The notes under the pieces: generated by a model
The model's database searches: none
Told to the model about the DNA's origin: nothing
What the model saw: the letters and a program-made list of their open reading frames with translations, nothing else
Source of the DNA: Chrysomallon squamiferum
Taxonomy: Eukaryota; Animalia; Mollusca
NCBI GenBank assembly: GCA_012295275.1
Contig: CM022673.1
Location: 14,818,001-14,882,000, forward strand
DNA: 64,000 nucleotides
Reading direction: 5' to 3'
Program-made: the position numbers and the translations under genes
Shown here: positions 3,201 to 52,800 of the stretch, in pieces
Layout: the number at the start of each line of letters is the position of its first letter
Numbering within the stretch: the stretch's first letter is position 1

Positions 3201-3912
3201 CAGAAATATGTTTACATTGACAGAAACAGAAATATGTTTTCATTGACAGAAACAGAAATATGTTTACAGTGACAGAAACAGAAATATGTTTACACTGACA
3301 GAAACAGAAATATGTTTACACTGACAGAAACAGAAATATGTTTATACTGAGAGAAACAGAAATATGTTTACATTGACAAAAACAGAAATATGTTTACACT
3401 GATAAAAACAGAAATATGTTTACAATAACACAAACAAATAATATAAATTAAAAAAACAGGATTATTTAAAGAAACAATACAAGCAAGTTATTACATACTC
3501 TGTATTTTATTTTATTAAGAAAAAGTAAACATACCTCACCACTGGACCCAAAACACTGCTCCACACAAGCAATGCGCCTTGCATTGGCCTCGGAATTTAC
3601 TGAAACAACAACAAAAAATTGAGAGAGAAAACAAAAAAAACTTTTAAAACTGAGTGACGAGATCTCTGTAGTGAGCACACAAATAGAATTCTGTGTTGAA
3701 AACAATTAACTGTGTACATACATATTTTAAAAAAATCAGGTTTCAGATTGCATACAGAGCTTTTTTAATTAACAGCAGGAAATGTCTCAGTCAGATTAAA
3801 ATCTGATTTGTTAAAACTGACCTCTTTTTAAAATACAATATATAAGTAAATAAATAAATAAATAAATAAATAAATACCAATGGAATGGACTTTAATATTT
3901 ATTTATGTATAC

Positions 3913-3953
<41 letters not shown>

Positions 3954-6308
3954 AATTTATTTAGTGCAAAATAGATCAGTTTTACACACACATACACACA
4001 TATTGGGTTCAGTAACATTAAATTAATATTAAAATAATAATTATCCAACATTCATAATCATAACTAGTAATATTTCCTTTTTCTTTTTCTATACTGTTAA
4101 CTCATAAAACACAAATAACTGAAATACAAGGTAGTCAATAAACCACAGATCACAAACACTACAAACCAACCTACTCAGTTTACTTAAACACCATGGAAAG
4201 TAAAACAAATGTATATTTACAAACAGTTAACAAAACCGGTTGCATACTTTTTAAATAAGAAAAAAGAAAACTCACTAATGCAATCCATGTTGTAGAAATT
4301 TGTGAACAAACAGATTAGTCCTTCCTACTAGACTATGATCTAATTCAGAGGTCAGATATTTTGACAATAACAGATACTGTTACAGGAAGAAATAGCACAC
4401 TATAAATATAACATATCCCTTTACTGTACACGACAGAGGTAAGTCATTTTCAAGTTAATCACATCGTTTTTACTTCTGAATACATATTTATTTATTTAAT
4501 TATGTGTTAAAAAAATGTATTTTTGTATTTATTGTTGTATTATTTATAAGCATGCAGAAAAAAAAGGAATGTTGTTTTCAAACACAAATTAATTTGTGTG
4601 TATCATAAAGGTATTTAAAAATATACTTTATGCTATGTGAAACAAAATTTATTATTTCAAAATTTATTTTCTGTTTTTATTATTTTCTATTTTTAGTATT
4701 TTTATTTATTTACTTTATTATTATTATCTTAAATGTATCAGTATGTTACAAAACATAATCGTCTGATTGATAAACTGAACTGCTTAATTTTCATCACTAC
4801 ACTTTTGTTATCAGCAACCTAATCAGACAGCTGTGTTATTTCATGACAGGCACTGCCTGTCAAAAACAAGAATAATGTTTAATACTTTGTAGTTTTCAGT
4901 CTAAATGAATGTTTATCTTTTAGAATCAACACTGGAAAAATTTCAGAAGAGACATAAGCTTTTTACTCTCGGATTTAATGAGATATTACTAAATTATCTT
5001 ATAACACATCTAGATTTTTATACTGAGTATATAACAAAATAAAGAAATAAATAAAATTATAATAATAAAGTACAAAATATGCAAGCATGTGATGAATCTA
5101 AGCAACTTTCCTGTGATAAACAATATTTTTATTTTCTTCTCCTTTTTACCACATTCCTCTATAAAAAGTCAAAAAACAACCACAAAAGTGTCATGACAGC
5201 TCTGTCTCATGAGGTATTTATCTCAGTAACTATTTGTATATGTAACATATTATACAGAATGTATTGCTGACTAAAATTCTATTAATTCACAGAAAGGTCA
5301 AACAATCACCCTGAAGTATACAAAAATGTACTTATCACTATGAATGAAAATATCTGAGCAGCATCAGCAAATTTTGAACCCTTGTTCCACCACATGTCTA
5401 GAGATAACTATAAGCTACAATTTTATCTGTAAAATTACCGCATTCACAATATTGGTGTTTTAATCTTCAGTTGATTTAAGTGAGAGATGAGTGAAATAAA
5501 AATTAATTAATGGGGAAACTGTGAAGATATTAAATCATGTATCTGCTGTAAAACCTAAAACTGGATTTTGAAAAAAAAAAAAAAAAAATTTCAGTGAAAT
5601 ACTTGCACACACTTAACAGTAATAAAATACAAGCAAGAACAAGATAAATATAAATGATGATAGTGATTAAATAAATAAAATATTACAAGATAGTCGGATA
5701 ATTAATCCATCCATCACTCTGTTTAATCATCAATCAAATTATTTCTGTAACATTTTAAATATCAGAAATCATTTTACCAACTCCTGTTAGTTAATCTTTG
5801 TCAAAAACAAACTGATATCTCAATTAAATATTCATCAGAACCAATCAATAAACTGTTTAAAGCACATCCAATATCCTCAGTTTAATTCAGATATTTCATT
5901 TGTTTAACTATTATTTCACAACTAATTTAACTGGTAATCAGATGTATGAACTTGTGTGTGTACTTCATCTGTATGATTTCAGTAAATATTAATTAATTAT
6001 TGAATTATACTTAATTCAAATATTTTATTAATTCACAATTTATTTATCACACTAGGATATCAACAAATCCAAAAATATTTTATAAACCTCAATTATTTGA
6101 TAATACAAGAACACATATCTATACTTGAGATGATATCTGTTTAGTTTAACATTAATGATTAAAGCTTGTAAGTTTATATGTAAAGTTAACTGACATTTAT
6201 ACTTAAAAATTAATAACATTTCTCTTTATGAATGATGTAACATATATATATATTATAAACAATAAATTAATTTAAAAAATTATAATCTGCTGAACTCTTT
6301 TTCTCTAT

Positions 6309-10492: not shown

Positions 10493-13400
10493 TCATGTAT
10501 TTCTCCCATCTCTCTCCTTATCACTGTGTTCAAGTTCGTAGGCAGGTTTGTAACACACTATTCCCTGTGAGTCAATGTACTGAAGTGTTGGGTTAGGGTG
10601 AGTGTTGTTCATACTTCCTAACGAGGTGTACCTGTAAGTATACCAGATATATAAAATACAGTAAACTCGATACTTTAATTATAAAAACATTTAAAATAGA
10701 AAACTGGATGGTAAATATGCAACAGTTGTATAAATATTCAACAATGCTTTGATGCTTAAATATATACTTTTATATGATTATTAAATATTCAATGTACCAG
10801 TAGCTGACCATTAAACACATAATACATTTTATAAATGTAACATTACAACTGACCCTCTGTCATACAGACTACAGTAAGGCAAACTAAGACTTCTAAGAAA
10901 GTGCCAGATGTCCTGGTATGTCCAGTCCAGCAGTGGATTTACTCTCATGAACTGTGGCCAGTCTGGATCAGTCATTGTAAATGATGTCAGACCATCTGCA
11001 AAATGACCAACACATAGAATTGATAACAACAGTTCTGCAGATTTCATGTTATAAAAAAATGATAAAAAACATTTTTCATCTGTTACTGGTGAGCAACTTT
11101 TGCCAATAACAAAATATATAAATTAAATAACAAGTTTGAAAGGATATATTGAGGCTGACATTTTATAATCATTTTAAAGATTTGTTATTATCAAACTTTA
11201 TTATCAGCAAACTCTAAGTTGTTCGAAATAAAAGGATATTCAAATTTATTTAGTTATTTGTTATTTTATTATACTTTATTATTAGCAAACTCTAGTTGTT
11301 AGTGATAAAAGTTATTTGGAAGTACACAAAATTTATTTAGCTATTTGTACTGCCAGAGTTACACATCTTGTCTGAGTTCTTTTGTTTTTAATGTATTAGA
11401 ATCACCATGTTAATCAAAAATAGAGAACATTTATTTACGTGAAAAAGGATCAGTTTGTCTGGTTCCCATGACAACTGCTTTCATATCTGGATGTTGAATT
11501 TGAAGTTCTTTAAGACAACCTTTGATTCTTCCATTAAAATGAAGCATTTCCAAGTTGTACCTAAAATAAAAGTAAATAAAAATGTTACAATACCTTTTTT
11601 TTAAAGGCAAAAAAAACATTTAACAATCAAAAAGACATTTCAAAATATTGTTATTCAGTATTAATAGTGGATGTCAAACAAACAGTTTTTGTTTAAAGAT
11701 TTGAGTTAATGCATAGTTTTTATTTACAAATCATGGTGTAGGGTTCCTACACTTGCACATATTTCTAAGTGAAAACTACTGTGAACCCTATAAGACGTAG
11801 TGCTTTAAAAACTGCTGATTCCTCTCACTAGTTCAGTGTCTACAGAAACAAACACTTCACTTACCTGTCTCTAGAAATCTGGATGAACTTTTCCACTTCT
11901 GGAAAAGGAAGCTTGCTACGGATATACAGAGCTTGCAACTTTTCTTTATAGTCAGGAAATTTTCTATAATTAAATAAAAATAAAAAATAATAAAAAATAA
12001 AAAACAGATGAAAAAATTCCAATCAATACTGTAATTACTACACAAAGAAATGTTTTTTGACAGAATGTAAACTTTACATTTATTAATCGATTGTGATAAA
12101 ATGTTAAATTCTGAAAAGGAACAAAACAAAGAGAAAGAATTATTTTAAATTTAGTACTTGACTTTTTAAAATTAAATTATATCCATTCTTAAATGTAAGA
12201 AACTGTAGAGGATTTAACAGGTTACATATGTAATGTCAGTTGTGCAATGATAAAATTATTTTTGTTTATTGTTTGCAATTGCTTGAACTGACCCTTCACA
12301 TCCTAATTAGCATCAACAATACTTTCTTTAACAGTATTTCAAACATTATAACAATATTTTAACAGATGTTAACTATCTCAATACATTTTAACAATATCTT
12401 AACACATTTTAACAGTGTGATTATTTCTTATCAACAACATTACCATTTGTTTCTAAATGTCTGGACTCTGGCTGGAAATGACAATTATGTTGATTTTCTG
12501 TCACCTAACTGAATGTGATGAACTATCCAGAAGTCTACTTGTAATAACATCTTAGTGGTTTAGTCTTTAAAATAAAAGTTTTTTCCTGAATTACAAAATA
12601 TTGTGATTTTTATCATAATTTGTTTGCAGCATTTACCTTTTTGCAACAGCATAAAATAAATGTAGTAAAACAGTGCAGTCCTTTCCACCATTGAAACCAA
12701 CACACACCTCATCCAGTCTGAAATGTTTGTTTTTAAGTAAACAAATCAACTCAACTTTAAACACAGTCACAAAGTTAGTTTTTATGTACACAAATCATAA
12801 ACAGAATTAACCTATTTTACTTACAAAATACAATAAATGTCACAGTAATGTAACATGAATAATTTCTGTTTTAAACAAATACTGTTTACATAAAAATATT
12901 ATTTGAATAATAATAATTTAAATAAAAATAAATTCTACATATAAAAATAAATTATATTTTTTGTTCTTGCAAAATTCACAATATAATGATTTGTAGCAAT
13001 AAAAATAACATTATTATTATTATTATTATTACTGTTGTTGTTGTTGTTGTTGTTGTTGTTATTGACATTTAGTATTGTAATAATACAGTAGAGAGAGTTG
13101 AACTTAAAGATGGATATACATAGGTTTCAAAATTTAAAACTTGACAAAAGACAAAGTTCTAAATAATTAAACAGATCTCTGTTGTTTTACAAACCTGTAT
13201 TTATTTAGACACTCATCAAGAACATCAACAGCGTGACGGACGTGGTTGCTGAACTGATTTGTCTCACTCGACGTAACAATGTCACTGATGCGTTTAACAG
13301 CATTTCCTATAGGGTTGTTATCATAGCTGATCACTGAACCTGCATCATTAAAACATCAACACCATATTTCATCAACATTTTAAAAACCTCATCAATATTT

Positions 13401-19420: not shown

Positions 19421-19530
19421 ATACATACATGTTTGTTTTAGATACAAATTTTTAAAGATTAGCCGTTAAATGTTTTTTTTTTTTTTTCCTGTACTAGAAT
19501 GGAGATGTGCATGAAGTGAAGACATCAACT

Positions 19531-22500
19531 ATGACATCAAAGATGAAGTCGACAGATCAGTACAAGGTGCTCAGTGGAATCTGTCCTGATGAGAAGTGTC
19601 GAGCTAAACTTCACTTTCCAGCATCTGATAAAAGTGTTGAGTGTACAAGTTGTGGACAACGGCATGAAAAGTCATCACTGCAGAACATCGCTGAGGTTAC
19701 AGACACCAACATTGCTCTTCACAATCTGCTTCGCAATGTTCTTCTTGGCAATGTCAAGCCACAAAAAGGGCCTGAAAATATCAAAGTTCTTGGCCTGTCC
19801 AACTATGTCTGCAAACTGCTGTCCCCCATACTGACACGGTACGGCATGGACAGGCAGACAGGGAAAGCCATGCTACTCACAGAAATGGGTCAGCCAGAAA
19901 TTTTTGACTGTGGTGTTTTAGGTGACCGGTCATTTCTTATTGACCCAGAGCATCTTTCAGTGGTGGGGTATGGACAGGATAAATCTGGGAGCTTCCAGTA
20001 TCTGGCAGACACACTGAAAATTATAAAAGAGACAAATGGTGACTGTGACGTTCTGGTTCCTATCCATGCTGACGGTGATGGTCACTGTCTTGTCCATGCT
20101 GTGTCGCGAGCTCTCGTTGGACGTGAGTTGTTCTGGCATGCTCTTCGCGTGAACCTGCTCAACCACTTCAGAGAGCAGATGACTCAGTACAAACAGCTGT
20201 TTAAAGACTTCATAGACCAGGACGAGTGGGTCACCATCATGAACGAGTGTGATCCAGATTTCATCCCACCTGACAATGAACCACTTGGTCTGCGTAACAT
20301 CCACGTGTTTGGCCTTGCTAATGTCCTCAGACGACCAATCATCCTGCTTGACTCACTCAAGTGGCATGCAGAGTCTGGGAGACTATTCAGGTTTGTTTTA
20401 AAATTTTGAACAAACATCTGATTTTTTAAATTAAAAAAAAAGCTATTACGTTTTATACTAATTATTTCTCACACTTGTCCGTAACTTATCAAACATTTTT
20501 TTTTATTGAATAATGCCTGAAATTATAAGTAACAGTGTTTTAAAATACATCTTTGTTAAGTTCATTTTAATTTATTTTATTTATTTGAATATTTTTCCAC
20601 TGTTTTGTTGGTGTGGTTTTTAAAAAAAATGTAAAAAATATTTAATTTGGATTTTAATTCCAGCTTTCTGCATGTGAAAACATTTACTCTATTTTCACAG
20701 GTGTGTTCCTGCCTGGCTTGGTTCCTCCAGAGAAATGTACAAAGGGAGGAGTTTTGAATAAACCTCTGTGTATTGCCTGGAGTAGCTGTGGAAGAAACCA
20801 TTTTATACCTCTTGTAGGCGTGAAAGGTTTGTGCTGTCTGCAGTGTAGTGCTATTCCAGACTAATCAATGCTGTAATTACATTATTATTCCCTGACCAGT
20901 ACAAGTGTTACATAAAAAAGATACTTTGCTACTGATTTGTAAGAGTCACCAGTGGAAGTGGGTTACTTTAGGCACAAAATAACTGTGACTGTAAAAACAT
21001 GCTGTCATGTGTTTAAACAGATTAACCTTAATAGTTAATCCCTGCCTTTCTGATTTCCGAAATGTAATTTGAAAAATGAATTTTATGAGCAGAATCTTTT
21101 GTAGTTTTACAAAGAAATGATGACTATCATAGGTCTCATTGGTTGTTTTCTGTATTTTTAATTGTTTTCTTTCAGGCCGCCAGGTGCCAAAGCTACCACG
21201 GTATCTGTTACAGAAAACCTGGGGAGTGCCCAGCACTCTCATAGATCAGTATATTGACTTTCAGGATGGAATGTGTGTTGTTGGGGGTGACAAATCTCTA
21301 CAGGTAAGAATCTAATAACATTGTGTTTGTAATAGGTAACTTAAAAGTGGTCTGGTGAAATTTTGTACATTGAAAAAGTGACAGTGAGTGAAAATGTGGA
21401 AATTTTATAATAGAGAATATGTAAAGTTTATTAATAATGTAAAACATATATTTTATAAGTTTTCAAAGATTTAAAACTTTTTTTTTTTTTTTTTGAAATG
21501 TGAAAATTACAGTGTTGCAAAAAATAAAATTTTGATGTTAATTTAAAATAAGATAACTTCATTTTTTTAAAAGTGAAAATTTCAGTATTGAAAAATGAAT
21601 AAAACATTTTAATTGATGTAAAATGTTGAAATTTCAGGACCGGTATTTACAGCGTCTTGTTGCTGCAATGGAAGATGTGTTTTTTGAGACGTACAAAGTA
21701 CATCCCAGTCTTGTGGCCGACGTGCACCAGTTTGTTTACAAAACTTCAGGTCAGAAGTTCAATTAAAAAAATTATTAATATTTTCATTAACCTGAGAGTC
21801 AACTTAGAAAAACTATAATAATTTAATGTTTTTTTATTGAAAATAATTTTATGTTCATCTGGGAAATGCAAACTTTGAAATTTCACTTTGTTTTATTAAA
21901 AATGGAATACAAAAGTGGCTTCTTGTTAATAAAGTTTTTGTATGTCTCGTTTATTTATTTTTTTATTTTTATTTTTTTAGGTTTTGTTGGAGCGAAAATG
22001 AAGGTGGTGATTGAGGCTACGCAGACTGCAGTACAAGAACATCGGCTGTACAGATGTCTTCTGTGTGATGCAATCATCGAATATCAGCTTCCTGCTGAGT
22101 GGTTCCAGCACGGAGGTAGTCTGTACAACCTTGCTGTTCAGGTACATGGTGAACTCAAAGTTGACAAGAAGTACTCATTTCCTTTGCAAGGTGAGCCCAG
22201 TTGAATAGAACTGTTTAAATACTGTCTTCGAATTTCACTTTGAAAAAATAAGACTTTTGTACCAGACTAATATATTTATCTCTGTAATCTTTATCTATAA
22301 AATATTTTATTTATTTGTGTTTGTTGAATGTTTTTGTTGCAGGAGCTGTGTGCACGTACAACAAGGCACGAGATGAACTGGTTCTGGATAGAACTCAGAG
22401 CAGACTTGTCAAGTGTACTTTCTGTCATGGGTTTGTTATCATTATCACTGTCAGTTTAAACCGTAATTTCATTTAAATATATGAACTAAAACAGAATACC

Positions 22501-25500
22501 AAACAAATATATTAATAATTAACCTAACAACAACAGAAAGACAGAAAAGTGGTATAATAATATATACAAGAAATAATGTGTTAAACTTTGGTTAAACTTC
22601 ATAAATATATTTAGCATATTTAATACTAAAAAAGATAATTCAATTCAAATCAATTCATTTTATGTAAAATGTGTGTATGTGTGTTGTATGTATAGATATA
22701 GATATGTGTGTGTATGTGAATTTCTTTTGTATTTGATAAGACAGACAGAACATATTTTTGGAACTAATGATTGTGTAATTATAATAAGCTTCAGTTTCCT
22801 TTCTTCCATTTTTTTCAGACAGTAGTTTTAAATAGTAAATTTAAAATCATTATTTCATCACTCGTAGTGCAGAGTATAAAATATTTACTTTAATTTATTA
22901 TAAAACTTTCAGAGATCGTGTGAGGCTGGTGAAAGGGGATGGAAATGTGTTGTATCAGAACGGAGACCGCACCCGAACTCCATCAAACACCACACGATGT
23001 ACATGCGGCTCCAAACATTACTGGGACGGAAAGGAATATGATAATTTACCTGAAAAGTATGTTGTTTATTCGTACTTACCACGTCAAACAATTATTTAAA
23101 TGATTTTTTTCATTATTTCATTAACATTTCTTTGGTGTTCGATTTGAGTAAGCAAAGGAAGCAGTTTATTAAAGTGTTTTCACACTCTTTTCTATGACAC
23201 ACTGAAAAGTCATTAAAAATAAATCTTGTCAGAGTAGTTTGCAGTTTGATTTTGCCAGGGATGTAAAGGTTTGGTGTTTTCAGACTGCCAGTTACGTTGG
23301 AGTGGAATGACAGGACAATCAAGGAGGAGGTGGCATGGTTCCAGTATGAGTCTGACCCAGCACTGAACAGCAATGTCTACGAAGTTGCCCAGAATCTCGT
23401 TCAGAAACACTTCCCAGGTAGAACTTTCTGTAAAACTTAAAATTATCATTTTTTAATATTTTATTCTTCTTTTTTTTTAAATTTTATTTATTTCCTTTTT
23501 CTTTGTTTTTAAGTTTGGTTGATATTGTTCAGACATTTTATTTCCCAGTTTAATCTGATTTGACCAATAGATAAATTTAGACAAAAGAGTTTGTTTGTTT
23601 TGTAGGTGAGTTTGGCAGTGAGAGATTGGTACAGAAAGTTGTAAATAAAATTCTACGTCAGACAGCAGCCCCAGAGCAAGACAATGCTGCATGTGAGACA
23701 TCAGCCTCAAAAACGTCAACATGGTCCCCAGAATCCTCATCAAAAATCATCATTACAGGACAACAGGTATCTCACTTTATCTGTCATAATAGCGAATATA
23801 ATTTTTTAATATAATAAGGGATGTTGTAAGCAGTATAATAACTTAGAAATCTGATTTGTCAGTGATGAGAATATAAGGAAGTTCAATTATTTTGACAAAT
23901 ACCTAAATGGTTTTTTCTGTGTCAACAAATAAATTAACATTTTTTTTGTTTTGATTTTTTTTTAATCCTCATTCAAGGAGTGAAAGTAGATTAATGATTA
24001 ATAGTAAACATTTAAAATACAGAGTTTAAATTGTTCTGTTTTTAGCACAAAAGCATTCACAAGGAGGAGTTGAACATGAGCGAGACAGAACGAATGGTGA
24101 GACAGAAAATTGAAGCGAACGCCCCCCTTCGTCAGAAGAAGAAATCTGGAGATGCCTCCCGACCAGAGACCGCCTCTGGTTCCACCCGCCCCCTGACTGA
24201 GGTACCTCACAGAGTTGTTACCCTTGTTTTTTTCCTTTCTTTAGATTTAGTCTTTCATTTTAGAAAACCAGCATTTTTGTTAGACACTTTCTTGTAATAA
24301 ATGATTGAAGGTTAATTATCAGATTAGAAAAGTAAATATATATGTGAGATGCAGAAAAAAATAACTGCAAGTGACTAAAAAAAAATTGAATGTGGGGGAG
24401 AAGAACTGACTACATTTTTGATGATATTTTGTTTCATTTCTCTTCTAACTGAATTCTGTTCTGTGTTCTAAGATGTCAAGAATCAGTGTAGAAAAAAGAC
24501 CTGCTACAAGTACATCGCAGCAACGCCCAGAGGCTGCTGCTGCCAGTGCCAGTGCTACAACACAGCCCTCCAGCTCTACTGAGTCCACAACAGCAGCAAC
24601 ATCAGAAGAAAAGAAAATACGAGTAGCAACATCAGAGGGTAAACAGGTAAAATGTGTGTTTTTAATATCAGAAACTTTGCACATTTTATAATCAGTGAGA
24701 CATTTTACACTGCTAGAAAGATAAACAGTTACTGTCTTACACATAAACACAAAAGGGGGTTCTAAGTAAGATATGTAATCTGTTTTTCAAACATTTTATT
24801 AAAGATGGTTTGATGTTGGTTCCCAGATACCTACTAGACACAGTGTAAGTGTTTATAATGTTGTTTGGTTTCAGGTGATGTTGACTCTGAAAGACGATGT
24901 GACGTTTTCTGAGTTGCAGGATCTCATACAGGGACTGGTCAACATTGCTCCTGACCAGCAGAAACTGAGGATTGGGTTCCCGCCCCAGGAACTGAAAGCA
25001 AGTGACTTTGAGAACAACAAGAAAGTTGATCTCAAACACGGAGACAAGATCACAGTTGAAATACTAACAAAGACAAGCACACAACCTGACGTCAGTCAGC
25101 CATCCATGTCTGGAGGTCAGTTGAGATGTCTGTCAGGTGTGTTCGGAGTGTCTGAGTGTCTGAAGTTTACAAATCACAATATTTTGATGTTAGCATGTTA
25201 GCATGTAAGTGAGCTGATACAAATTAGTGCAGTTGAACAAAATGTTTAACAAGATGTTTACTTGTTGTGTTTAGATGGGAAGACTGAGAAACTCAACTGG
25301 AGTATGTTTGACGACAACATCGCAGCACCTTCCGACAACTTACTGCAGAATATGTGTCGAACAGAACATGGTTGGAAATTTTACATTTTTTATTTCTCTC
25401 TCCTGATGTTGACATGTTTCTGATTTAGACAGTACTTGAATAAATGTGAATATGTTTGATAAATTATGTGTTAGTTTATGTTTAGAACATGTGACTTCAT

Positions 25501-27156
25501 AAAATTAGTGATAATTTAGTTTTTGTATAGGTGCTGACAACATTGACATGTCCATCTCGTCACTGACCATGTTAGCGACGTTGTCAGGTCGAGATTTGTG
25601 GACCTATGCGCAGTGCAATCCTCACCTCTTCTCAGTGGGAGGTCTTTTCTATAAACAGGTGGAGCGTGACCTTGGTCTGGCCAGCGGAAAACATTGTACC
25701 ATACCTGCCTTACCTGGAAAGGTGAGTTTTTGAACATAGGTAAAATATTTGCTTTAATCTTTTGTTAACATTCAGCCTGATTAATGTAACACAGTACACA
25801 AATTAATGTAAGATTTTCTATGAATAAATCTAAGATTTTTATACATAAATAAATTACACTCTACAATGTTACTGTCGTTACTGTCGTTCCAGAAAGATTT
25901 TTCTGGTTACTGATGTTATCATGTTTGTGGTGTTTTGTGAAATGTAGCCTGAATTAAAAGCTCACTCACTGCTGCATGTTTACATTCAGTCACTGTGTAT
26001 GTAGATATGTCAATATTCAGACAGTCACTGTACATGTAGAGATGTCAGTATTCAGACACTGTCACTCTGTATGTAGAGATGTCAGATACTATCACGTTCT
26101 GCACATATTAGTATTCAGACACACTGTCACTGTGTATGTACTTTACATTCAGACAGTGTCACTGTTTCAGGTTTTCAGGTACAATGCGACAGATGACAGA
26201 CTAGAACTGTGTCTGGAACCGTATGGACATTTCCCTGTTGAGCCTGACATTGAGAAGAAAATCAAAACCAAAGCTCCTGTTGTCAGCGAGGCAAGTCATG
26301 ATGTCAAGTTTGGCTCTAGTGGTGCAATCTGTCGTGAAGACAGAGGCACAGTGGCCTTCTCTGGACATGGACATTCACTGAAGGCTGCAGACATTCGAAT
26401 GCCTTCTGACTTAGTGGACACTTCACACCATGGTGCAAAGAGGATGCAGAATCTGTGTGACCCCATGACCCACCAGGAATCTATCACTGAAGTGAACGAT
26501 GAGACCGAGGCTGCTGCAGCTGACCCCAGACAAGGTCAAGGAGATGACGGTGACACAGGAGAGGCAACTGAGTATCAGAAACTGGGGCCTGGTTTCAGTA
26601 TAATAAGTCCTGCTGTTAACAGAACCAACATGCAGGTTGATGTTTTCCGTCAGCTCGTTGATGCTATTGAAAAGTCAGTATCAGACTGTGATGACTTCAC
26701 CGACTCTAACCACGACGACAACGATGCTGTCACTGTCAAAGTTCCACTACCAGGAGGTGGATCAGGAAATAGGAAAAAATATTGAGGTTAATTAAATGAA
26801 TTATTATCCATTTTTTTTTTTTAATTTGTTAATTTGGAAATAGGAAAAAATATTGAGGTTAATTAAATGAATTATTATCCATTTTTTTTTTTCAATTTGT
26901 TACTGACCATCCTATTTAATTTATCTTTCAAATTAGCATTTTCAATTCTTTCAATATATTTTAGTCATAAACGTTTAAATATTTTTTCTTACCAGCTGTT
27001 ATCAATTTGTTTATACTATTTTTTTTATTACTGACAAAACAATGATTTTATTTCATTCTTGTTTACATTGAAGTATTTTTATATAACTGAAAATATTAAA
27101 TATTTTTACAGAACCGAGAAGAAACCAAAAAGGATGAACAGATGGACACCAGCTAG
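19531..27156 (+). CDS. VCPIP1: Deubiquitinase VCPIP1/VCIP135 (OTU plus UBX-like domain). Exons 19498(ATG 19531)-20390, 20701-20826, 21176-21303, 21638-21749, 21981-22190, 22343-22430, 22913-23056, 23284-23417, 23606-23766, 24046-24201, 24473-24646, 24875-25115, 25275-25370, 25531-25721, 26171-26786, 27112-27156. Two apparent +1 frameshifts as assembled.
   Basis: CPDEKCRAKLHFP..VECTSCGQRH, the catalytic DGDGHCLVHAVSRALVGRELFWHALR, WSSCGRNHFIPLVG (catalytic His), WDGKEYDNLPE, HFPGEFGSERLVQKVV, the UBX-like QKLRIGFPP, and a C-terminal MDTS. Confidence 0.93.
25975..26165. repeat. Degenerate ~35-bp tandem repeat (cagtcactgt.tatgtaga.atgtca.tattcaga) ending at a VCPIP1 acceptor
   Basis: About five diverged copies are visible. 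They create the spurious 5' extension of ORF 25976..26785. Confidence 0.75.
26765..26902. repeat. ~70-bp tandem duplication of a VCPIP1 exon end plus 5' splice site
   Basis: ggaaataggaaaaaatattgag|gttaattaaatgaattattatccat(T)n occurs at 26765 and 26836. Confidence 0.9.
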
Positions 27157-29097
27157 GACACTGTCTGTTCTTTTGACTGTACAGTGGTGTTGTCTGCGAT
27201 GCATCTGTTGTCACCAGCTAGCTGCACTTGACTGTGATACTCGTCATAATAAACCTGTTTTCAAACAGCTTCGTATTTCCCATATTTTAATAAATTATTT
27301 AAATACTCGGCTGTTTTGTCTCTCAATAACCAATTTCAAATTTATGTGATTGATTACAGAAATATAATTAACAAAATCTGTGTAATTTATATCATCTGAT
27401 CAGTTGGAAAGAGACAAAAGACATTCAAAATGTTTGATGTTACTGATTATGTTTGAGAAATATATCATAGTGTATCCAAAATCTTGGAATAATGGGGGTT
27501 TTGGGGGTTTTACTCCCCAAATTTTACAAATAAAGACTTCTATCTTTAATCCAAGTTAAAAGAATAGCAAAACACTTCAATTTTAGGGCTGTTTTAGACT
27601 TTTTTAGTTATTGTTAACAGTATAGATAAATTATATTTAAAAAATAAGAAAACTAAAAAGAAATGCTGAAATACTTTATTACAGAAACAGTAACAAAATG
27701 AATTTGTTCATTCTGCTCTAAAGTGTAGAAACACTCAAATATAAATTTTTGATCAGGTGCAAATGTACAAACTGAAACTAAATTAAAAAATTTTGATCTT
27801 TTAAACAGGATATTTATTTTCATTGTTATTGATTTTTATTTTATTTTATTTTTTTTTTTTTTTTTTTGATTTCACTTATTATTAAACAAATGTTTCCTGT
27901 CATTTTAACAATTTTGATCATAACAGTTTCAGATGTACAAATGCACAGATTGAAAGAATATTAATTTTCTTGCAGTCAAAAACAAAGAACTATAAAATGA
28001 ACCCTGCTTGGTTAGTAACTTTGAATTGAAATTTTTTCTAAACCAAACTAACTTGGAATTCTGAAATTATACAGTTTACTGAAATATTCTATGGCAATAT
28101 GGATATGTAACATATATCAATGTGGACATAGCACCAAACATTTAAATATTTTGACAGTATTTACAGTGTCTTTTTTAAAGTGAGCAGCTGCTCTCAAATC
28201 TGCAAGCATAAAAAGCTGTCAAACAAGAAGATACTCACTTAGAAAATCCAGATGAATTTTCTATTATTTTAATTATTATTGGGAGTTTTTTCAAAACAGT
28301 TTAAAACATAATTATACTGACCTATCTGCATTAAAATGTTTTGGCTAACAAATCTGGTTTATACAACATGCCAGTGTTACTATTACTACTACTTTCCATG
28401 TAAAACAATTCAGTCATTCTACAAATCTACATTGTTTAAGTAACAACTAGTACAGGTATAAAAATATAATTTTAAACTTTGATTTTACAGTATTTGATTA
28501 ACTAGCGGTGGATAGTTGTGTGTTTTTCATCAAAGCTAAAACAAACTTGAATCACTTTGTCAAACAAATATAAATGAGAAGACATCTACAGTAAACTGGT
28601 GAAATATTTTAAAAAACATCTTTGGTTAAAATGAAAAACACAGAACTACTGGGCTACTGGGCTAACTGATAACTAATAACAACAGTATTATTCTAGAGGC
28701 TAGGCCACACAAAGTGAACTACAGGAAGGTAAATGTTAATACTAAATGATAATGCACCAATGACTAGATAATATAAAAAACAAAATGCAAGGCAAATTGA
28801 ATGGACAATAAAATGAAGCAATCAAACAATCTGAACAATGGTAAAAAGTAGAATACTAGGCACATAAAGAAGCTAACTGTGCAGTCCAGAGCTCTTCCTG
28901 AGATATTTAATATAATTGTTCTTTTTCACGTTCGATGTTTGCAAACTTGTCTCTGTCTGTAACTACACTTGTGACACACTCTCTTACACACATAAAAAAA
29001 CAACCAGTCATCAGTGGAGTTACTGTGGTCAGTGTTTATAGAGCTCACTGTGACATCACTGCTGCAACCGAGAAAATATTCCTAGTGGAAAGTTTTC

Positions 29098-30686
29098 TCA
29101 AAACTCGTCATGTTTTGTGAGAGCCTCGCCAAAGTCAGTGGCCTGACTCCCAACAAACAGGTCATACTTATCTAGAATTTCCTCCTTGGTTAACTTGCCA
29201 TCCTGAAACACAAAATAAACACAAATATTTAAACACAAATATTTCAACACAAAATAAACAACTATTTCAGCACAAAATAAAAAAAACTTTCAACACAGAA
29301 TAAACTCAACTACTTCAACAAAAAACATAACACATTAACAATAAGAAACAACAAAAAATAGTTCTTGACAAACACAAAAAATCATCATCTTCTTCTTCAC
29401 TTAATTTTAATAACAGATTTTAAAAATATTTCTCACTACCTTCTAGAAATGTGTATGAGGATAATTTCACCTGTGTAATGTTTTGAAGCTGAGAGGTGTA
29501 TATAATGAAGTCATATAATTACATTAATGAGAAAAATGGTGGGTTAGGTACAAGGGTAAGATGAAAATGTAAAACAAAAGTAGCATTTTTTTCAGCAACA
29601 GGCCACGTCATTTATTTTGAGACTTGAACTTTACCTTGTTACATTAATTATAAATTTATTCTGTAAAAGATTTTATTTTGACAGTGTTCTAAAATCTCTG
29701 TGACATGTAATTTGTTTACAGCTGAGTCTATCCAGTTTTTGTTTTCTTCCCTTTGCCCAACAAGCTTTGAGCTTGGAATAAGAGCAAACTGGGATCTGTG
29801 TAACTGTTATAACTGTTTCTGTTGTTCATTGTTTAGATTCATCAATTTATCAGGCAAGTATAAACAAATAAACCTTTAACCACAAAATAAACTTAAGACC
29901 AAATTTGGGTAGAGATCCATGCAGTGTTTTTCTTCTTTTTTTAAAATTAAAAATGTCACATAACGAAATAAAAGAAAACATCAGCTCTGCATGGTGGAAC
30001 CCCACCTAAACATTGTGATCAGGTGGGGTAAACAAAGTCAAGGTCAGTGGCAGACTACCAACCTTGTCAATGTCGGACTCAAACATGAGATGTTTGGCTT
30101 CAGCACTTGAGTGGTCATAGTCAGTTGGAATGATCCATTCTTGGACCTCACTCTTATCCATTTTGCCATCTTTGTTTTTATCTCGGTAATCTTTAAACTG
30201 ATCACGCTCAGATTTCACCCAATCTGGCTCCTCCTCCCCTTCCTTCTTGTCTCGCCACATGTCACCTACAAAGGTCAAAGGTTAGAGGTGAAAGAAGCGG
30301 GTAAGCGGTTAATGTGTACGCACCTTGTCTACATCAGATGCTCTTATCAAGTGAGCTGCCTCAGCTGAACTGTGGTCATAGTCTTCAGGAATTATCCAGT
30401 CTTTTATCTCCTCCGCATCCAACTTGCCATTCTTGTCTTTGTCACGGTATGTTTTAAACTGCTCTCTTTCTGAGGCTACCCAGTCAGGCTCTCCACCCTG
30501 GTGATCATCATCATCTTCATCATCATCATCTTCTTCATCATCCCAAATGTCAGCTGTACAAGAAAACATGACAAGAGCACATCCAGTCTGAACAAACAGC
30601 TGTGTCTACACTACAAGAGCAGTTGCAACTGGCTAGAGTATCTCAACTCTCAGTTTTAAACAAATAAACATCAAGCCTGCTTAAAC

Positions 30687-30717
<31 letters not shown>

Positions 30718-33700
30718 CTCACATCATTTTTACATTTGGTATATAACATTCCATTATCTTTTTAAGCTAAAAAAAACCAGATAATTATTTAAATAATCAT
30801 TTTGGATCTGGCTGATGTTTATTTAAGATTAACAAAGATTAACTGAAGGGTACTGACCTATGTATTCTTCAAGACTGATGAAACCATCTTTATCTTTGTC
30901 AATGTCTTCCAGTGTCTCCTGCAACAAACAAAACAATTTGCTTTTTCACATTCTAAACTACAAAACTGATCTACAAAAACTTTCTTTTGAATGAGATGGT
31001 ACAGAGAATGCTGTGAGATGTTTTACCAGTAATTACATTTGCTTGGTACAAATACAGTAAAAGGTCTTTTACATGGAGAAAAATGCTTGTAAAACACTCT
31101 GAACTGTAAAATTCCAGCACAATGTCTCTGAAGTGCAATAAATAACACAAATCAGAAAATTGTTACATACACCAGTGAGCAGTACGTTAACAAGTGTGTT
31201 TTAAAACAAATAACACAAATCAGACAACTGTTACATACATCAGTGAGCAGTATGTTAACAAGTGTGTTTTTAAAAAGTAACACAAATCAAAAAACATTAC
31301 ATACACCAGTGAGCAGTATGTTAACAAGTGTGTGTTAAAACACTGTGTAACTTGTACTCACCTGCACAACAATGTCACGCATGTGTTCTGCATCTTCTGG
31401 ATGGAGGAAATCAACAAATTCATCATGAGTTAGTTTATCATCGCCGTCTTTGTCAGCCTTCTGCCAGCGTCTCTTGTCTCGGTTTATCATGTCCAGATAG
31501 TCGTGAGTCGGAGAATGTTCATCCTCTGGTTCTGAGATATTACAAAAAAATAAAAACACTGTAATAATCTAACAATACAAAACTGGATAATTTTGTGTTG
31601 GGAAATGTCTAAATGTTTACTGGACTTCTGTATAAATGTGACAAACCACTGCTACTAACTGTTAGTATGTTTGAAGGAACATTGACAAAAATCATCTATT
31701 GATAAGTATGTATAAAAAATATCTTAAACGAAAAAAGCAATAATGTTTTTCTTTTTTTTTAAGTTTGTATCTAAATATAATCTGTTATCCTAAATCTGAA
31801 AAGCTCCAAAATTCAAAATGTTTCCAAGCAACAGAAATACTTATATCTTACAGTTTGGGACAGTTTTGTACATTTTATTTTATTTTATGCATAATATTAT
31901 TAAAAATATTAAATAAAAAGATCCTGCAGGCTATCTGTACAAGCCTTACAAAAATGTAAATTTATCTAATTCATTATTAGACACAGATCCTATTCCTTAT
32001 AATTCAAAATGAGAAAAAGTTTAAAAATCTGGGCCACTTCCAATCTCAGTCATTTTGGACAAAGGATTCTGAAGGTGTATAACCTAATTGATTTTTATAT
32101 ATATTTGTTAGAGAGATTAACACCAATTCTGCATCTTACCATCAGGGTATCCATAAGTTCGTTTCTTGTAAGCAACCCAGCTAAGTTTCCCGTCAGCGTC
32201 TGGCTCATGGTCCTTCCAGCTGCGGTCTGTGTCAACGAGGACGTAACGTTTCTGTACATACTTGATCCATTCCTTCAGCTCTTCCTCAGTGACCATCCCA
32301 TCTTTGTCTTTATCTATCTTATCTACAATGATCCTGTAACACAAGAAAAACAAACACTGAGCTCACAACCAGAAAATTACAAATTGAACACAATAATATC
32401 AGTCCAGTGTAAAATCTGAATCAAATAATCTTGTTCTAATTTCATTTATGATAATTACTTGTGAACACTCAAAAAACTAACAACAGCAATAAGTAAATTA
32501 TATTAGTGAAAAATCATAGTAGATTTAACTAACACTGCAAGCATTTAACAGAATAAACTACAGGTGATAAAAAAAAGATTTAATTTCATACCCAAGTCTA
32601 TTACGGCTTTCCTCAGGAGACAGCTGATCAAATGTTTTGGCATCTTCCTGACCAAGGAAAGCTTCATGGTCATAGTCAGTGTTGTGTTCCCCATCCTTCT
32701 CATGATCCTCTGTACTCAGTATCTGAAACAATGTAAACATTTTAAATAAGATCACTTATTTCATATATGCAATAGGTAAACATTTAACATAGCCACTGAT
32801 ACAGTATACTTACAAACAAGTAAACATTTAACATAAACAGTGACACAGTATAACTATAGCCAAATAAACATCTAAAATACCATCACTGATACAGAATACC
32901 TATAACCAAGCAAACATCTATCATAACTTTTCTGAGGCAATATACACTGACGTGACCTATGTATGGTATTTCCTATCTCTTACTGGTGTGTAGCTTGTGA
33001 GAGATTTGGTTGCAACACATGAACTAGTCAAAGTCTCAGTTTTCTGCTAACAAAATGCTTTGAAATGTACTGTTCCATGCATGTTTATTGTTTATAAATA
33101 AAACTGACATGAATGTGGAAACCTGTTCATTAAAAAAATAAATAAACATTTTAAAGAAAATATAATCCAGTAATATAGAAAGATTTTTGCTCATAGTAGA
33201 GTTGTGATCATGAACAAACTATAAATCACAGAGGAACATTTGGACTAAAATAACAATAAATATAAATAAATGTTTTTTTCTTTTGTAATACACATACTCA
33301 CACACACACACATGTATGTATGCATTTATATGTATGTGTATTTGTGTATGTGTGTGCGTATATGTAAGAAAATGTCATGTGAACTACAGGTTACTTGATA
33401 CTCATGAGTTTCTGTCTGTGGATATATAAACATATCAAGGTTTAAATTTTTCCCACTGCTTTTCTCTAGAGCACTTTTTATTACAGTGATCAACATCTGA
33501 GTGACTACCTTTTTCAGTGTTAAGTTTTGGATCAATATATCTTAAAGCTAAAAAGTGGCAAATTAAAAGTAAGGTACAAATAAAATAAAAAAGCAAAATG
33601 CAAAGTATTAAATACAAAATAACAAAGTTGACAATAATGTAGAATTAATTGATTGTAAAAGTCTTGACAATCGAGGATGGTGTTCCTGAAAATTCCCCAT

Positions 33701-34705
33701 TCTTTTACACTTAACATGGCATACTTCTGTAATCCATGGTGATATCGAATAATTAAAGAGTTAATTGTGGAAAAATGTATGGTTATCTTAAGGCCTCAAT
33801 TTATTGATTCACATTAATTGCTCGAGTCATGCTATTTTTAAGACTGTTCCACTTAATTGCATAACTTCAAAATATGTTGTGCATTTGTACTTATCACTCC
33901 AAAAAATCATGTGCTCCTTACTGCCTTGGCAACCTAACATTTCTGACAACACTTGCCGTGTTCAAAAACAAATTAATTCTGTCCCTGACATATGTATCAC
34001 ATACACTTGTACTGAGTATCTGTAGTTACAAAAACATAAATTATAAACTACTTTTATAAAAATATATAAAAAAATATAACATTATAAAAACATACAAAAT
34101 ATAAATATCTTCAGCAGCAGTCAATGTCACCCTTTGAATAAACATATTACAAACAAACAAAACACTATCTGCAATCAAAACAAAATGTACCATGTGACAG
34201 CTGACATTAAGTATATATAAAATATTTTACACTTACATCTGTTGACAATAATTTTAAATTATGTGTTTTATATATTCTTCTCAATTTTTGATTATTTCAA
34301 AAAAATATAAAAAATAATATTAATTAGTATATGAAAAATATATTAATATATATATATATATATATAAATTTTTTTTTTTTTTTTAAATTCTTTTATGGTT
34401 CTCCACCACAGGTACTAAAACTAACTTATAAAAAAAATATAAAATATTATACTAAATACCTTTCCTTTGAACAAAACATGAATTATTTAAAACAAAACAT
34501 AATACCAGTATTATCTTAATATTTTTTTTTTGGGAGGGGGAGCTTTTTTTAACATCCAAGTAAAAGAAATATAATAATAATTAAAAATAAATACCTTTTC
34601 TTTAACTCGGTCTTTGTGTTCTTTTTCTTTGTCAGGTTTTGGAATGGCAGAACTTGATGTGAATGTCAAAACAGCCAGAACTAGAAGACAGACATACAGT
34701 CGCAT
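29098..34705 (-). CDS. CALU: Calumenin (CREC-family ER/secretory EF-hand protein). Exons 34705-34595, 32722-32592, 32333-32140, 31531-31362, 30918-30858, [30553-30324 OR 30265-30063], 29202-29098. A non-coding first exon has its donor near 36035.
   Basis: Signal peptide [20 protein letters not shown], then [23 protein letters not shown], multiple DxDxDG EF-hand loops, [13 protein letters not shown] and a C-terminal HDEF*. Confidence 0.95.
30063..30265 (-). other. Calumenin mutually exclusive exon 6B
   Basis: tag|GT GAC ATG TGG...GAC AAG|gttggt, 203 nt, phase 1 to 0. Encodes [23 protein letters not shown]... Confidence 0.88.
30324..30553 (-). other. Calumenin mutually exclusive exon 6A (acidic variant)
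   Basis: cag|CT GAC ATT TGG...GAC AAG|gtgcgt, 230 nt, phase 1 to 0. Encodes [32 protein letters not shown]... Confidence 0.88.
31143..31340. repeat. ~68-bp tandem repeat, 3 copies, next to the calumenin exon 4 donor
   Basis: taacacaaatcag...ttacatacaccagtgagcagta.gttaacaagtgtgt starts at 31143, 31211 and 31278. Confidence 0.9.
31780..31975 (+). mobile_element. DNA-transposon-derived repeat fragment, inverted relative to the copy at 40640-40855
   Basis: aaagatcctgcaggctatctgtacaagc matches the reverse complement of gcttgtacaaattagtctgcaggattt at about 40671-40697, and the flanks also align loosely. Confidence 0.6.
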
Positions 34706-49800: not shown

Positions 49801-52800
49801 GGCAGTCCATTTTTTCAAGATGTCTTGTTAAAACAGCAAACTCTTCCTGTAAGTTCTTCTTTGATCCCAGGTTTTCCTCAAATCTAGAAAAACATCAGCA
49901 GAAAACTGTAATTTCTAATTTCTGTACATTCAAGATTATCCTTTATGTGTATTTGCTATTTCTAACATTAAAAGATATTCTGAACAAAAATAGTTTGCTT
50001 TTATCTTTCATTACCCAAGCAGTACTAGTACTTCCCATTAATAATGTGACTTGTTCTAACTCACTTCAGTACCAGACATAAGTGAGACATAAGTGCAGTA
50101 AATATGAAAGCCATCTTTTTGTTTAGCATTGTGTAGTTATTCACCCTGAGTGTGTACAAAATCAATTAACACACTGGAATTATCCTTCTTTTTATGTAAC
50201 TTACACTGATTCCAAAAATTCAGAATTTTATATAATGTTTGATTTTATCTTTCTCATTATATACTTCATTAATTGAATGTACATGTAGTTACATAGCCAC
50301 GTCATTCTAGTTCCTGTCAGGGATCAAAAAATATATAAATAAATAAACAATTCCATGACCAGCAAATTATTTTTTGTTCTATTTTTACATTCACATTTAC
50401 TCATGAATTTGGCAATGTTCAGACCTCAGAATAAAAAGTTACTTTTAATGGAGTGTGTTTTGCACTCCTTTTTTTCCCATTATTATTAGAATAAATATAA
50501 AATTAATAAAATACAAAAAAAATAAGGTTCTAAAATATAATTTGGGTAATAATTAAAACATGAAATAATGGAATAATTAAAACAGTAGAAATTTGGGGGT
50601 AGTTTGTGGCTGCGTATTGTTAAACTTCCTTTCATAATAAAATACTGATAAAGAATTCTAATATCAAACAATTTGTTGTTTTTGTATAGAAATTCATCAT
50701 AATTTAACAGCTTGATACATTTAAATATGAAAGCCAGAAATATTTATGGATTCAGCACTGTGTAAACACATTTCACAAAGAGTCTAATTGTGCATTGTTA
50801 ATGCATATCGGTATTAACAGCAACTGCTGAAATGTATTTCACAGTGTTTATTGTTATTATTATTATTATTATTATTTTCAAATATTTCTAGTACTTTTTA
50901 AATTACTAATTGTATGTGTTTAAACAAATGTCATTATGACAAATGTTGCAAAAAGATTTGATTTAAATACAAAAGGCATATACATCAACATTGAAAATAG
51001 GAGAAACTGACATAATAAGATGACATGTACATCAGTTATAAACAATGGACAGTAAATATATGAGGTATGCTAAACAATGCAAACAAAACACTGTTGAAGA
51101 CATTTTTAACACATTTTCACATGTGCATCTCTGTTATTCAGTAATATCTATTTTGTGACAGAAATCAATATGTATGTATGTGTGTTTGTGTATATGTCTG
51201 TGTGTGTGCGTGCGTGTATGGTGAACCAAAAGCATATGGACAACAGGTTAAGTGTGTTACTGCATTGTCTGTATTGTACTGTTATCAATTTTAAATCATT
51301 TAGTGATAAGCAGAAGATTAGGTGTATTACATGCAGCTATTGTCATTTATATCTTAGACTGCCATGGCCAAGAAGTTAATTATAACTATAGTGGTTGTGT
51401 TGTATTAGTATAAATTAATGGGGTTTTTTTTTTTTTTTTGCATTATTGTATAAAATTTATTATAATAATAATAAATAAAAAAATAATAATATTTATACGT
51501 AATCTCAAAATAAACACTAACATTTACTCTCTACCTACTTTTGGGTAACCCTGCGTGTATGTGTGTGTGTACAAAACAAACTGTTAAAAATAACGACCAA
51601 AAATACTTGAGAAACTGAAATATTATAAACTCACTTTTTTTGCATTTCTGGATCTGAAAATTTTTCTGGACAATGGCTGAAAAAGATTTCCATTTTCTTG
51701 AAGTAGTACAGCACGTTTTCACCAACAGCAGGGCCCTTCAGAGAATGAAGTTTGGCCATTTCTTTTGCTATCAGTCTTTAAAAAGAATAAAACAAACAGA
51801 ATCAATATAATTTAAATTAAACAAACAAAAAAAAAAAAAAAAATCAAATAAAGGAACAAAAACACAGTAACAAAGGAAATGTCAAAATAATTTGATGTTG
51901 GCAAGAGATATATATTTAATTCATATAATGATAAGATATATTAGATCTACTAAACGAACCTCTGGATCTTTTTATCATAAACTGCCATTTCTTGTGTGAG
52001 TGGTTTCCCCTTCAGATAGCCATAAGCCATTCCATTTGTAAATGTGCAGTACACAGGGGCAGAACAACCAGCTGCATGAAGAATTCTGAAAGCTTCTAAT
52101 TCTGCCTTACGATCAATGAACAGTTCAGTTTTCTGACCATAAATTCGAATCAATACCATGTCATCAGCATCAGTAGGACAATAACAACCAAACAGAAAAT
52201 TTGATATACCTGTTGTGAAGTACTGAAAAAAATGTTTTGTTTATATTCAGGAGTCTCTGTTGTAACACATTATGTTGTTAAGCTAAAATCTTAAATAAAA
52301 ACATATACAATCACATAAACACATAATTTTAAATATTTTTAACATATTTTATTAGTTTTAAAAAAAATAAGTTATCATAACCGTATTTATAATTATTAAA
52401 AATAAATATGTCATCTCAACCATATTTATTATTTTTTTAAAATGTCAGTCACCTTATGTTATTCTATTCTCATTTAATTTCAGATGAATGCTGAAAACAA
52501 ATTTAAAAATACATGCCAAATTACCCTTAACTCTTTTAAATAAACAAACAAAAACAAACTGAAAAAATTCCTGATATTTCTTGTCACTTATTTTTGATGT
52601 TAAAAAAATAAAAAAATAAAAAATAAAATAATAATAATAATAATAATGTGGTATGTTTCCAGGTTTATACATTTATGGTTTTATGAATTATTTTCTCTAC
52701 ATGAATGAACATCTTTGGCATGGCAAACAGGTACTATATAATACATACCCTATAGACGTGTGCATGTCCTCCATAAAATCTTTATTTTTGTTAATTTGCT

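Follow-up and report, generated by a model that had tools for sequence, protein, structure and literature searches.

The calumenin locus and its paired exons

The window analysed here, a stretch of 64,000 nucleotides from Chrysomallon squamiferum, contains on its minus strand a calumenin gene of which eight coding exons were found (Table 1). The named protein-search matches to this gene are calumenins, members of the CREC family, and its closest named relative is that of Gigantopelta aegis, with identities of 80-95% per exon in tblastn. Six EF-hands are encoded, five with loops recognised by pattern and one, EF3, by alignment. The N-terminus encoded by the first coding exon is hydrophobic and likely to be a signal peptide from its composition, commensurate with the hydrophobic N-terminal helix of the Gigantopelta models; as in those models, there may be a few further codons upstream of the ATG. 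At the other end of the gene, RNA contigs run on from the last exon through the 3' untranslated region to about 27880-27921.

The 3' end of calumenin lies near the end of a VCPIP1-like deubiquitinase gene on the opposite strand (19498-26782, plus), which has VCIP135_N, OTU and UBX-like domains. Further away, the minus strand carries an exon of a choline/ethanolamine kinase (51953-52240), an exon of a PAPS-reductase-domain protein (10832-11122), which we take to be FAD synthase-like, an exon of a PH-domain protein (1971-2333) and a 457-codon open frame with no Pfam match (58915-60285). Within the calumenin gene, the intron that follows the EF3 exon holds three imperfect tandem copies of a sequence of about 63 nt (31160-31345).

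Table 1. Coding exons of the calumenin gene, and the A/B spacer, in window coordinates.
Feature	Position	Strand	Basis
First coding exon, coding part	34595..34705	-	ATG at 34705, splice donor; tblastn 84% to Gigantopelta calumenin
Constitutive exon, N-terminal region before EF1	32592..32722	-	tblastn and in silico joining
Constitutive exon, EF1-EF2	32140..32333	-	single copy; counterpart of the exon duplicated in jawed vertebrates
Constitutive exon, EF3	31362..31531	-	RNA joint 30917/31361 in 4/4 runs
Constitutive 61-nt exon, EF4 loop, ends in phase 1	30858..30918	-	sequence and RNA contigs
Exon A, 230 nt, 76 whole codons	30324..30553	-	84% to Gigantopelta isoform X1; RNA joints
Spacer between A and B, 58 nt	30266..30323	-	sequence
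Exon B, 203 nt, 67 whole codons	30063..30265	-	85% to Gigantopelta isoform X2; RNA joints on both sides
Last exon, coding part: rest of EF6 and HDEF end, starts in phase 0	29098..29202	-	sequence and RNA

Exons A and B are the subject of what follows. A preliminary description of this DNA had read them as homologous exons with intact splice sites, each running from phase 1 to phase 0 and set 58 nt apart, and in these respects it was exact, including the coordinates of the gap: both lengths are 2 mod 3, both exons are bounded by AG and GT, and both have the phases claimed. Over a shared core of 56 codons, 39 residues are identical and the nucleotide identity is 65%. Moreover, different codons lie behind 20 of those 39 identical residues, in keeping with the many synonymous differences that had been noted; pS is 0.80 and pN 0.25 over this core and, since the synonymous sites are saturated, no dN/dS ratio is given. 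When the window exons are joined in silico, inclusion of A alone gives an intact frame of 333 amino acids and inclusion of B alone one of 324, both ending in HDEF. A message with both exons meets a stop at 315 amino acids, 152 nt before the last junction, and one with neither meets a stop at 233 amino acids within the last exon. In other words, frame is lost on double inclusion and on double skipping, as had been anticipated.

Transcripts and the probable means of exclusion

Five public runs contain this stretch, of which the four RNA runs, from one study (X1 to X4), were consulted as assembled contigs covering window positions 27600-31700. The joint from B to the last exon (29201/30062), that from A to the last exon (29201/30323) and that from the upstream exon to B (30263/30856) are each present in all four runs. 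The joint from the upstream exon to A is found in two of the four, in run X3 as a loose contig end leading from 30858 into the beginning of A, and in run X4 as a 284-nt contig that covers both exons; it is absent from the joint table, where rows falling at a repeat in A were dropped. Neither an A-to-B joint nor a joint skipping both exons occurs in these four contig sets. Contigs lose rare variants, and hence the RNA shows that both single-exon messages exist rather than that the other two forms are absent. At the level of contigs, the junctions named for checking in the preliminary description returned both single-exon forms, and no joint for co-inclusion or a double skip is listed. Mutually exclusive use of A and B in this gene is supported by these spliced contigs, together with the isoform pairs of other species described below.

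The same data bear on the explanation that one of the exons is a pseudo-exon, already dead or decaying, or that the pair is an artefact of assembly. It is the case that A evolves faster than B, with mean pairwise identities among 20 molluscs of 64% and 71%, respectively, and that the B copy of one metagenome locus (L050) contains two stops. Both exons, however, are spliced in all four runs, which refutes this explanation for the present species, and the copies are only 65% identical and are both conserved in many species, such that we give it virtually no credence.

Contig depths for B and A were 40/13, 9/21, 7/21 and 25/12 in runs X1 to X4, with B ahead in X1 and X4 and A ahead in X2 and X3; contig depth being a poor measure that cannot rank the exons, these differences are not counted as evidence of regulation. 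The same pairs of runs, X1 with X4 and X2 with X3, share single-base differences in the 3' untranslated region, at 28032 and 27920. The ratio of A to B would probably be set by tissue or stage.

With regard to the means of exclusion, a steric threshold of about 50 nt between splice donor and branch point has been described (PMC7969005). A motif scan of the spacer gives putative branch-point-like motifs in which the adenine would lie 15, 42 or 49 nt beyond A's donor. In this species, therefore, the 58-nt spacer would appear to leave too little room for joint use of A's donor and a branch point for B, and any message containing both exons would carry an early stop and be exposed to nonsense-mediated decay. 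A stop placed 152 nt upstream of the last junction, as here, meets the usual rule for such decay.

That same stop also fits a different account, in which exclusivity is mainly imposed after splicing, through decay, or by splicing regulators, and the short spacer is an incidental feature of this lineage. Indeed, the phases 1 to 0 are kept in two metagenome loci, L001 and L008, despite spacers of 710 and 381 nt, and a further locus, L050, has a spacer of about 1400 nt (1398), from which it follows that exclusion does not generally depend on a short spacer. Set against this account are the positions of all three spacer motifs under 50 nt from the donor, the lengths of the other six introns of the gene, which are 258-1872 nt, and the form that skips both exons, which has its stop in the last exon and escapes the usual decay rule, yet is absent from the contigs. 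We consider this alternative possible, although the less probable one, and prefer steric exclusion by the spacer with decay behind it for C. squamiferum. No stable RNA fold was found across the spacer (z = -0.54), and no docking/selector pair is evident among 25 of 38 inverted repeats in a scan of 29203-30857. At 140 nt downstream of B there is a single TGCATG motif, which is not counted as evidence.

Exclusion by proximity of donor and branch point has relatives elsewhere. In work on alpha-tropomyosin exons, branch points were reportedly mapped near the upstream donor and far from the acceptor. OGDH exons 4a/4b are similar to the present pair in having a distance from donor to branch point of under about 50 nt, a distance that is predicted here; they differ in having mapped branch points, at a long distance from the acceptor, whereas in calumenin the whole spacer is short and the branch points are putative (PMC7969005).

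A further possibility is that exclusion is purposely leaky, with shifted splice sites yielding a third, longer protein in which both segments are present and the EF-hands are more numerous. There is a GT four bases inside the spacer whose use as a donor would open a frame of 402 amino acids across A and B, and in-frame A+B arrangements made through shifted splice sites are found in six database models, of which two are RefSeq alternative isoforms (Mercenaria X5 and Crassostrea angulata X3) and the others are from Ylistrum, Solemya, Elysia marginata and the tubeworm Ridgeia. However, no joint using the shifted donor is found in the contigs of the four RNA runs, and its use would leave an intron of 54 nt; moreover, the join points vary by species, as is to be expected when gene predictors force a frame. 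Purposeful leakage is accordingly thought unlikely, and several of the gene models that fuse both exons may simply be wrong.

Distribution and age of the pair

Relatives were gathered through three protein searches and three cluster look-ups, from which 21 A/B isoform pairs were checked; a search of representatives gave single-exon open reading frames and served solely for building a query. In 19 of the 21 pairs the 150 residues that precede the segment match throughout and the last exon is identical, such that the members of each pair must be splice forms of one gene. These 19 comprise 18 molluscs and the annelid Owenia. The molluscs are gastropods (Gigantopelta, three Haliotis, two Patella, Littorina, Aplysia, Biomphalaria, Physella and Bradybaena), four oysters, Pecten, Sinanodonta and the chiton Liolophura; the pair is thus kept in gastropods, bivalves and a chiton. 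The remaining two pairs are a cross-species Mytilus pair and one from Mercenaria, whose members differ at a second place too. In the models of Solemya, Elysia marginata, Ylistrum and Ridgeia the two segments stand in tandem with A first, and A precedes B wherever the order is visible.

Among 80 metagenome loci searched by profile, four had two profile hits. Three of these (L001, L008 and L050) hold an A-like and then a B-like exon within one gene, the splice ends and phases having been checked in L001 and L008. The fourth, L060, was rejected as an exon pair, as it consists of two whole calumenin-like genes in tandem (262-5421), one of them divergent. A single exon occupies this place in nine selected genomic loci that have both flanking exons, from 16 loci examined closely. 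Among the best 120 of 1708 protein matches, only a B-like form is found in Octopus, Lingula, Lineus, Tubulanus, arthropods and deuterostomes, which, given that fraction of the matches, is weak evidence that A is absent from those groups. A Lingula model of 480 amino acids was considered as a further case of the exon pair and set aside, since its N-terminal half is repeated almost exactly and it has one copy of the A/B exon.

In L050 the B exon (4606-4804) has two in-frame stops and the A-like exon is open, and an intact near-copy of that B exon lies in another locus (L002, 663-860). This could reflect a gene duplicate that keeps only A, comparable to the split into CALUA and CALUB in teleosts, or else a copy undergoing decay.

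Trees were built on a 56-column core from which the acidic tract of A, described below, was excluded. In all three, every A row falls on one side of a branch, with 26 of 70 rows and support of 89/69 in one, 16 of 42 rows and 67/83 in another, and 15 of 38 rows and 82/91 in the last, none of them starred; several A rows, including those of annelids, are on long branches. The AU test rejects a recent origin of the pair within this species (p = 0.005). Since a chiton, bivalves and gastropods all have the pair, the duplication goes back at least to the base of the molluscs, itself Cambrian or older. Exon B is the closer to single-copy outgroups, at 68% identity against 59% for A, from which it would appear that A, also the faster evolving, is the derived copy. 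The history that these features suggest is one tandem duplication before molluscs diversified, after which B would have stayed near the single-copy state and A diverged.

Whether annelids share that event is a separate matter. Separate duplications in molluscs and annelids, with the likeness of the annelid A exons due to convergence and long-branch pull, are not rejected by the topology tests, with AU p = 0.17 for an annelid-only clade and p = 0.27 for a grouping of Owenia A with Owenia B. Furthermore, A of Owenia is without the acidic tract, the matches listed for Octopus, Lingula, Lineus and Tubulanus have the B-like form only, and the nine single-exon loci would be consistent with more than one origin. 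A common origin is indicated by the grouping of A rows in every tree, by the leucine at EF5 loop position 8 and the acidic residue after the WxxP motif that A of Owenia, Ridgeia and L001 shares with mollusc A, by the acidic tracts of Ridgeia and L001 A, and by the order of the exons, A being upstream of B in Ridgeia, L001, L008 and L050. On balance, two origins is a tentative reading to which we give well under even odds, and the duplication probably predates the split of molluscs and annelids.

The pair is distinct from that already known in this gene family. In vertebrate CALU, a mutually exclusive pair encodes the first EF-hand and dates to the jawed vertebrates (PMC4494069). Both vertebrate copies (in P0145) match one exon of the window, 32333-32140, which is single, and the molluscan and vertebrate duplications are therefore independent, as the preliminary description had supposed. 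The two systems are alike in family, in the use of tandem homologous exons one at a time and in the shortness of the spacer, which is 73 nt in the human gene (PMC7969005) and 58 nt here. They are unlike in what is exchanged: the vertebrate copies are of equal length and cover the EF1 region, whereas the molluscan copies reach from the EF4-EF5 linker to half of EF6 and are unequal by the acidic tract.

That duplicated exons can be mutually exclusive, and that such pairs have arisen convergently in orthologous genes, is well established (PMC9741552). The survey in that source, of human, fly and worm, describes tandem duplicated exon substitutions that arose independently at different exons of orthologues and are enriched in calcium-related genes; a word search of its main text gave no mention of calumenin. 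No description of a molluscan or annelid calumenin exon pair was found in the literature searched, which included PMC9829102, PMC8373072 and PMC9177970. Automatic X1/X2 models of molluscan calumenins in RefSeq and GenBank do correspond to the two isoforms, and they come with no account of exclusivity, age or function. The pair is real, old and independent of the vertebrate event, and its two isoforms are already present among automatic annotations.

Predicted consequences for the third EF-hand lobe

The segment exchanged runs from the EF4-EF5 linker through EF5 and into EF6, of which it takes in the entering helix and the loop as far as its fourth residue. The preliminary description had envisaged a switch of the C-terminal EF-hands; the C-terminal position holds, but whole EF-hands are not exchanged, as only the linker, EF5 and the first half of EF6 are involved. 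It had also passed over A's acidic tract, how old the pair is and the absence of the short spacer from some lineages.

The principal difference between the forms lies in the linker, which has 11-18 acidic residues in A of all 20 molluscs and 4-7 in B; in the window, A has about 13 more negative charges than B. Acidic tracts are also present in A of Ridgeia and L001 and not in that of Owenia. Smaller differences recur across the 20 molluscs: position 8 of the EF5 loop is leucine in 20 of 20 A forms and methionine in 17 of 20 B forms, the WxxP motif is followed by an acidic residue in A and mostly by proline in B, and the residue two places before the EF6 loop is small in A and glutamate in B. 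Across 22 taxa, however, the EF5 loop retains its usual acidic or asparagine ligands and its final glutamate in both forms. AlphaFold models of the Gigantopelta isoforms have the same helix pattern with A and with B, the tract of A appearing as a low-confidence coil (residues 235-249, pLDDT under 50) between the exit helix of EF4 and the entry helix of EF5; no calumenin structure is among 60 of 137 PDB matches.

On the basis of these ligand sets, the EF5 loops of both forms would be expected still to bind calcium, such that the swap would act as a means of tuning rather than as an on/off switch. In this it differs from OGDH 4a/4b, where the exchange toggles calcium sensitivity on and off (PMC7969005), both calumenin loops here being canonical. 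Human calumenin, which binds calcium with low affinity, folds on binding it into three lobes of two EF-hands each, with the ryanodine receptor as a partner at EF2 and SERCA2a at EF3-4; its third lobe, EF5-EF6, is said to be incompletely characterised (PMC4798761). In the molluscan protein, A inserts between lobes 2 and 3 a flexible run of 11-18 aspartate and glutamate residues, which would contribute additional weak calcium sites; A also changes a few lobe-3 positions and lengthens the flexible linker, and its partners would perhaps differ. The acidic tract is thus predicted to alter calcium handling or partner binding at the third lobe.

Taken as a whole, our explanation, to which we assign a probability of roughly 0.8, is that the gene splices in either A or B from an old pair, that the spacer and decay exclude joint use, and that the acidic tract of A tunes lobe 3. 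A broader proposal can be made, which is speculative and in our estimation improbable in its entirety: calumenin would be a repeated target of exon duplication, at lobe 1 in vertebrates, lobe 3 in molluscs and annelids and possibly lobe 2 in a venerid clam, with the acidic A form serving as a dedicated, high-capacity calcium-handling isoform in tissue that calcifies or secretes heavily, retained from before the diversification of molluscs. Two natural versions of lobe 3 exist within one gene and are kept across molluscs, and this makes the role of the lobe testable. The gene is, moreover, a clean case of convergent mutually exclusive splicing, at two places in one gene. Proteomic and stress studies of molluscs that report 'calumenin' pool the two isoforms.

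Differences of a similar kind are seen at other points of calumenin. In Mercenaria mercenaria, P0168 (X1) and P0199 (X4) differ homologously over the whole EF3 exon region, besides the A/B swap, a comparison of protein models that suggests a second mutually exclusive pair in that species; no such difference at EF3 was seen in 12 other proteins, mostly bivalve. In Saccoglossus kowalevskii, the EF2 region of P0074 (X1) and P0066 (X2) contains about 35 residues that are homologous but not the same in the two isoforms, possibly owing to a further duplicated exon.
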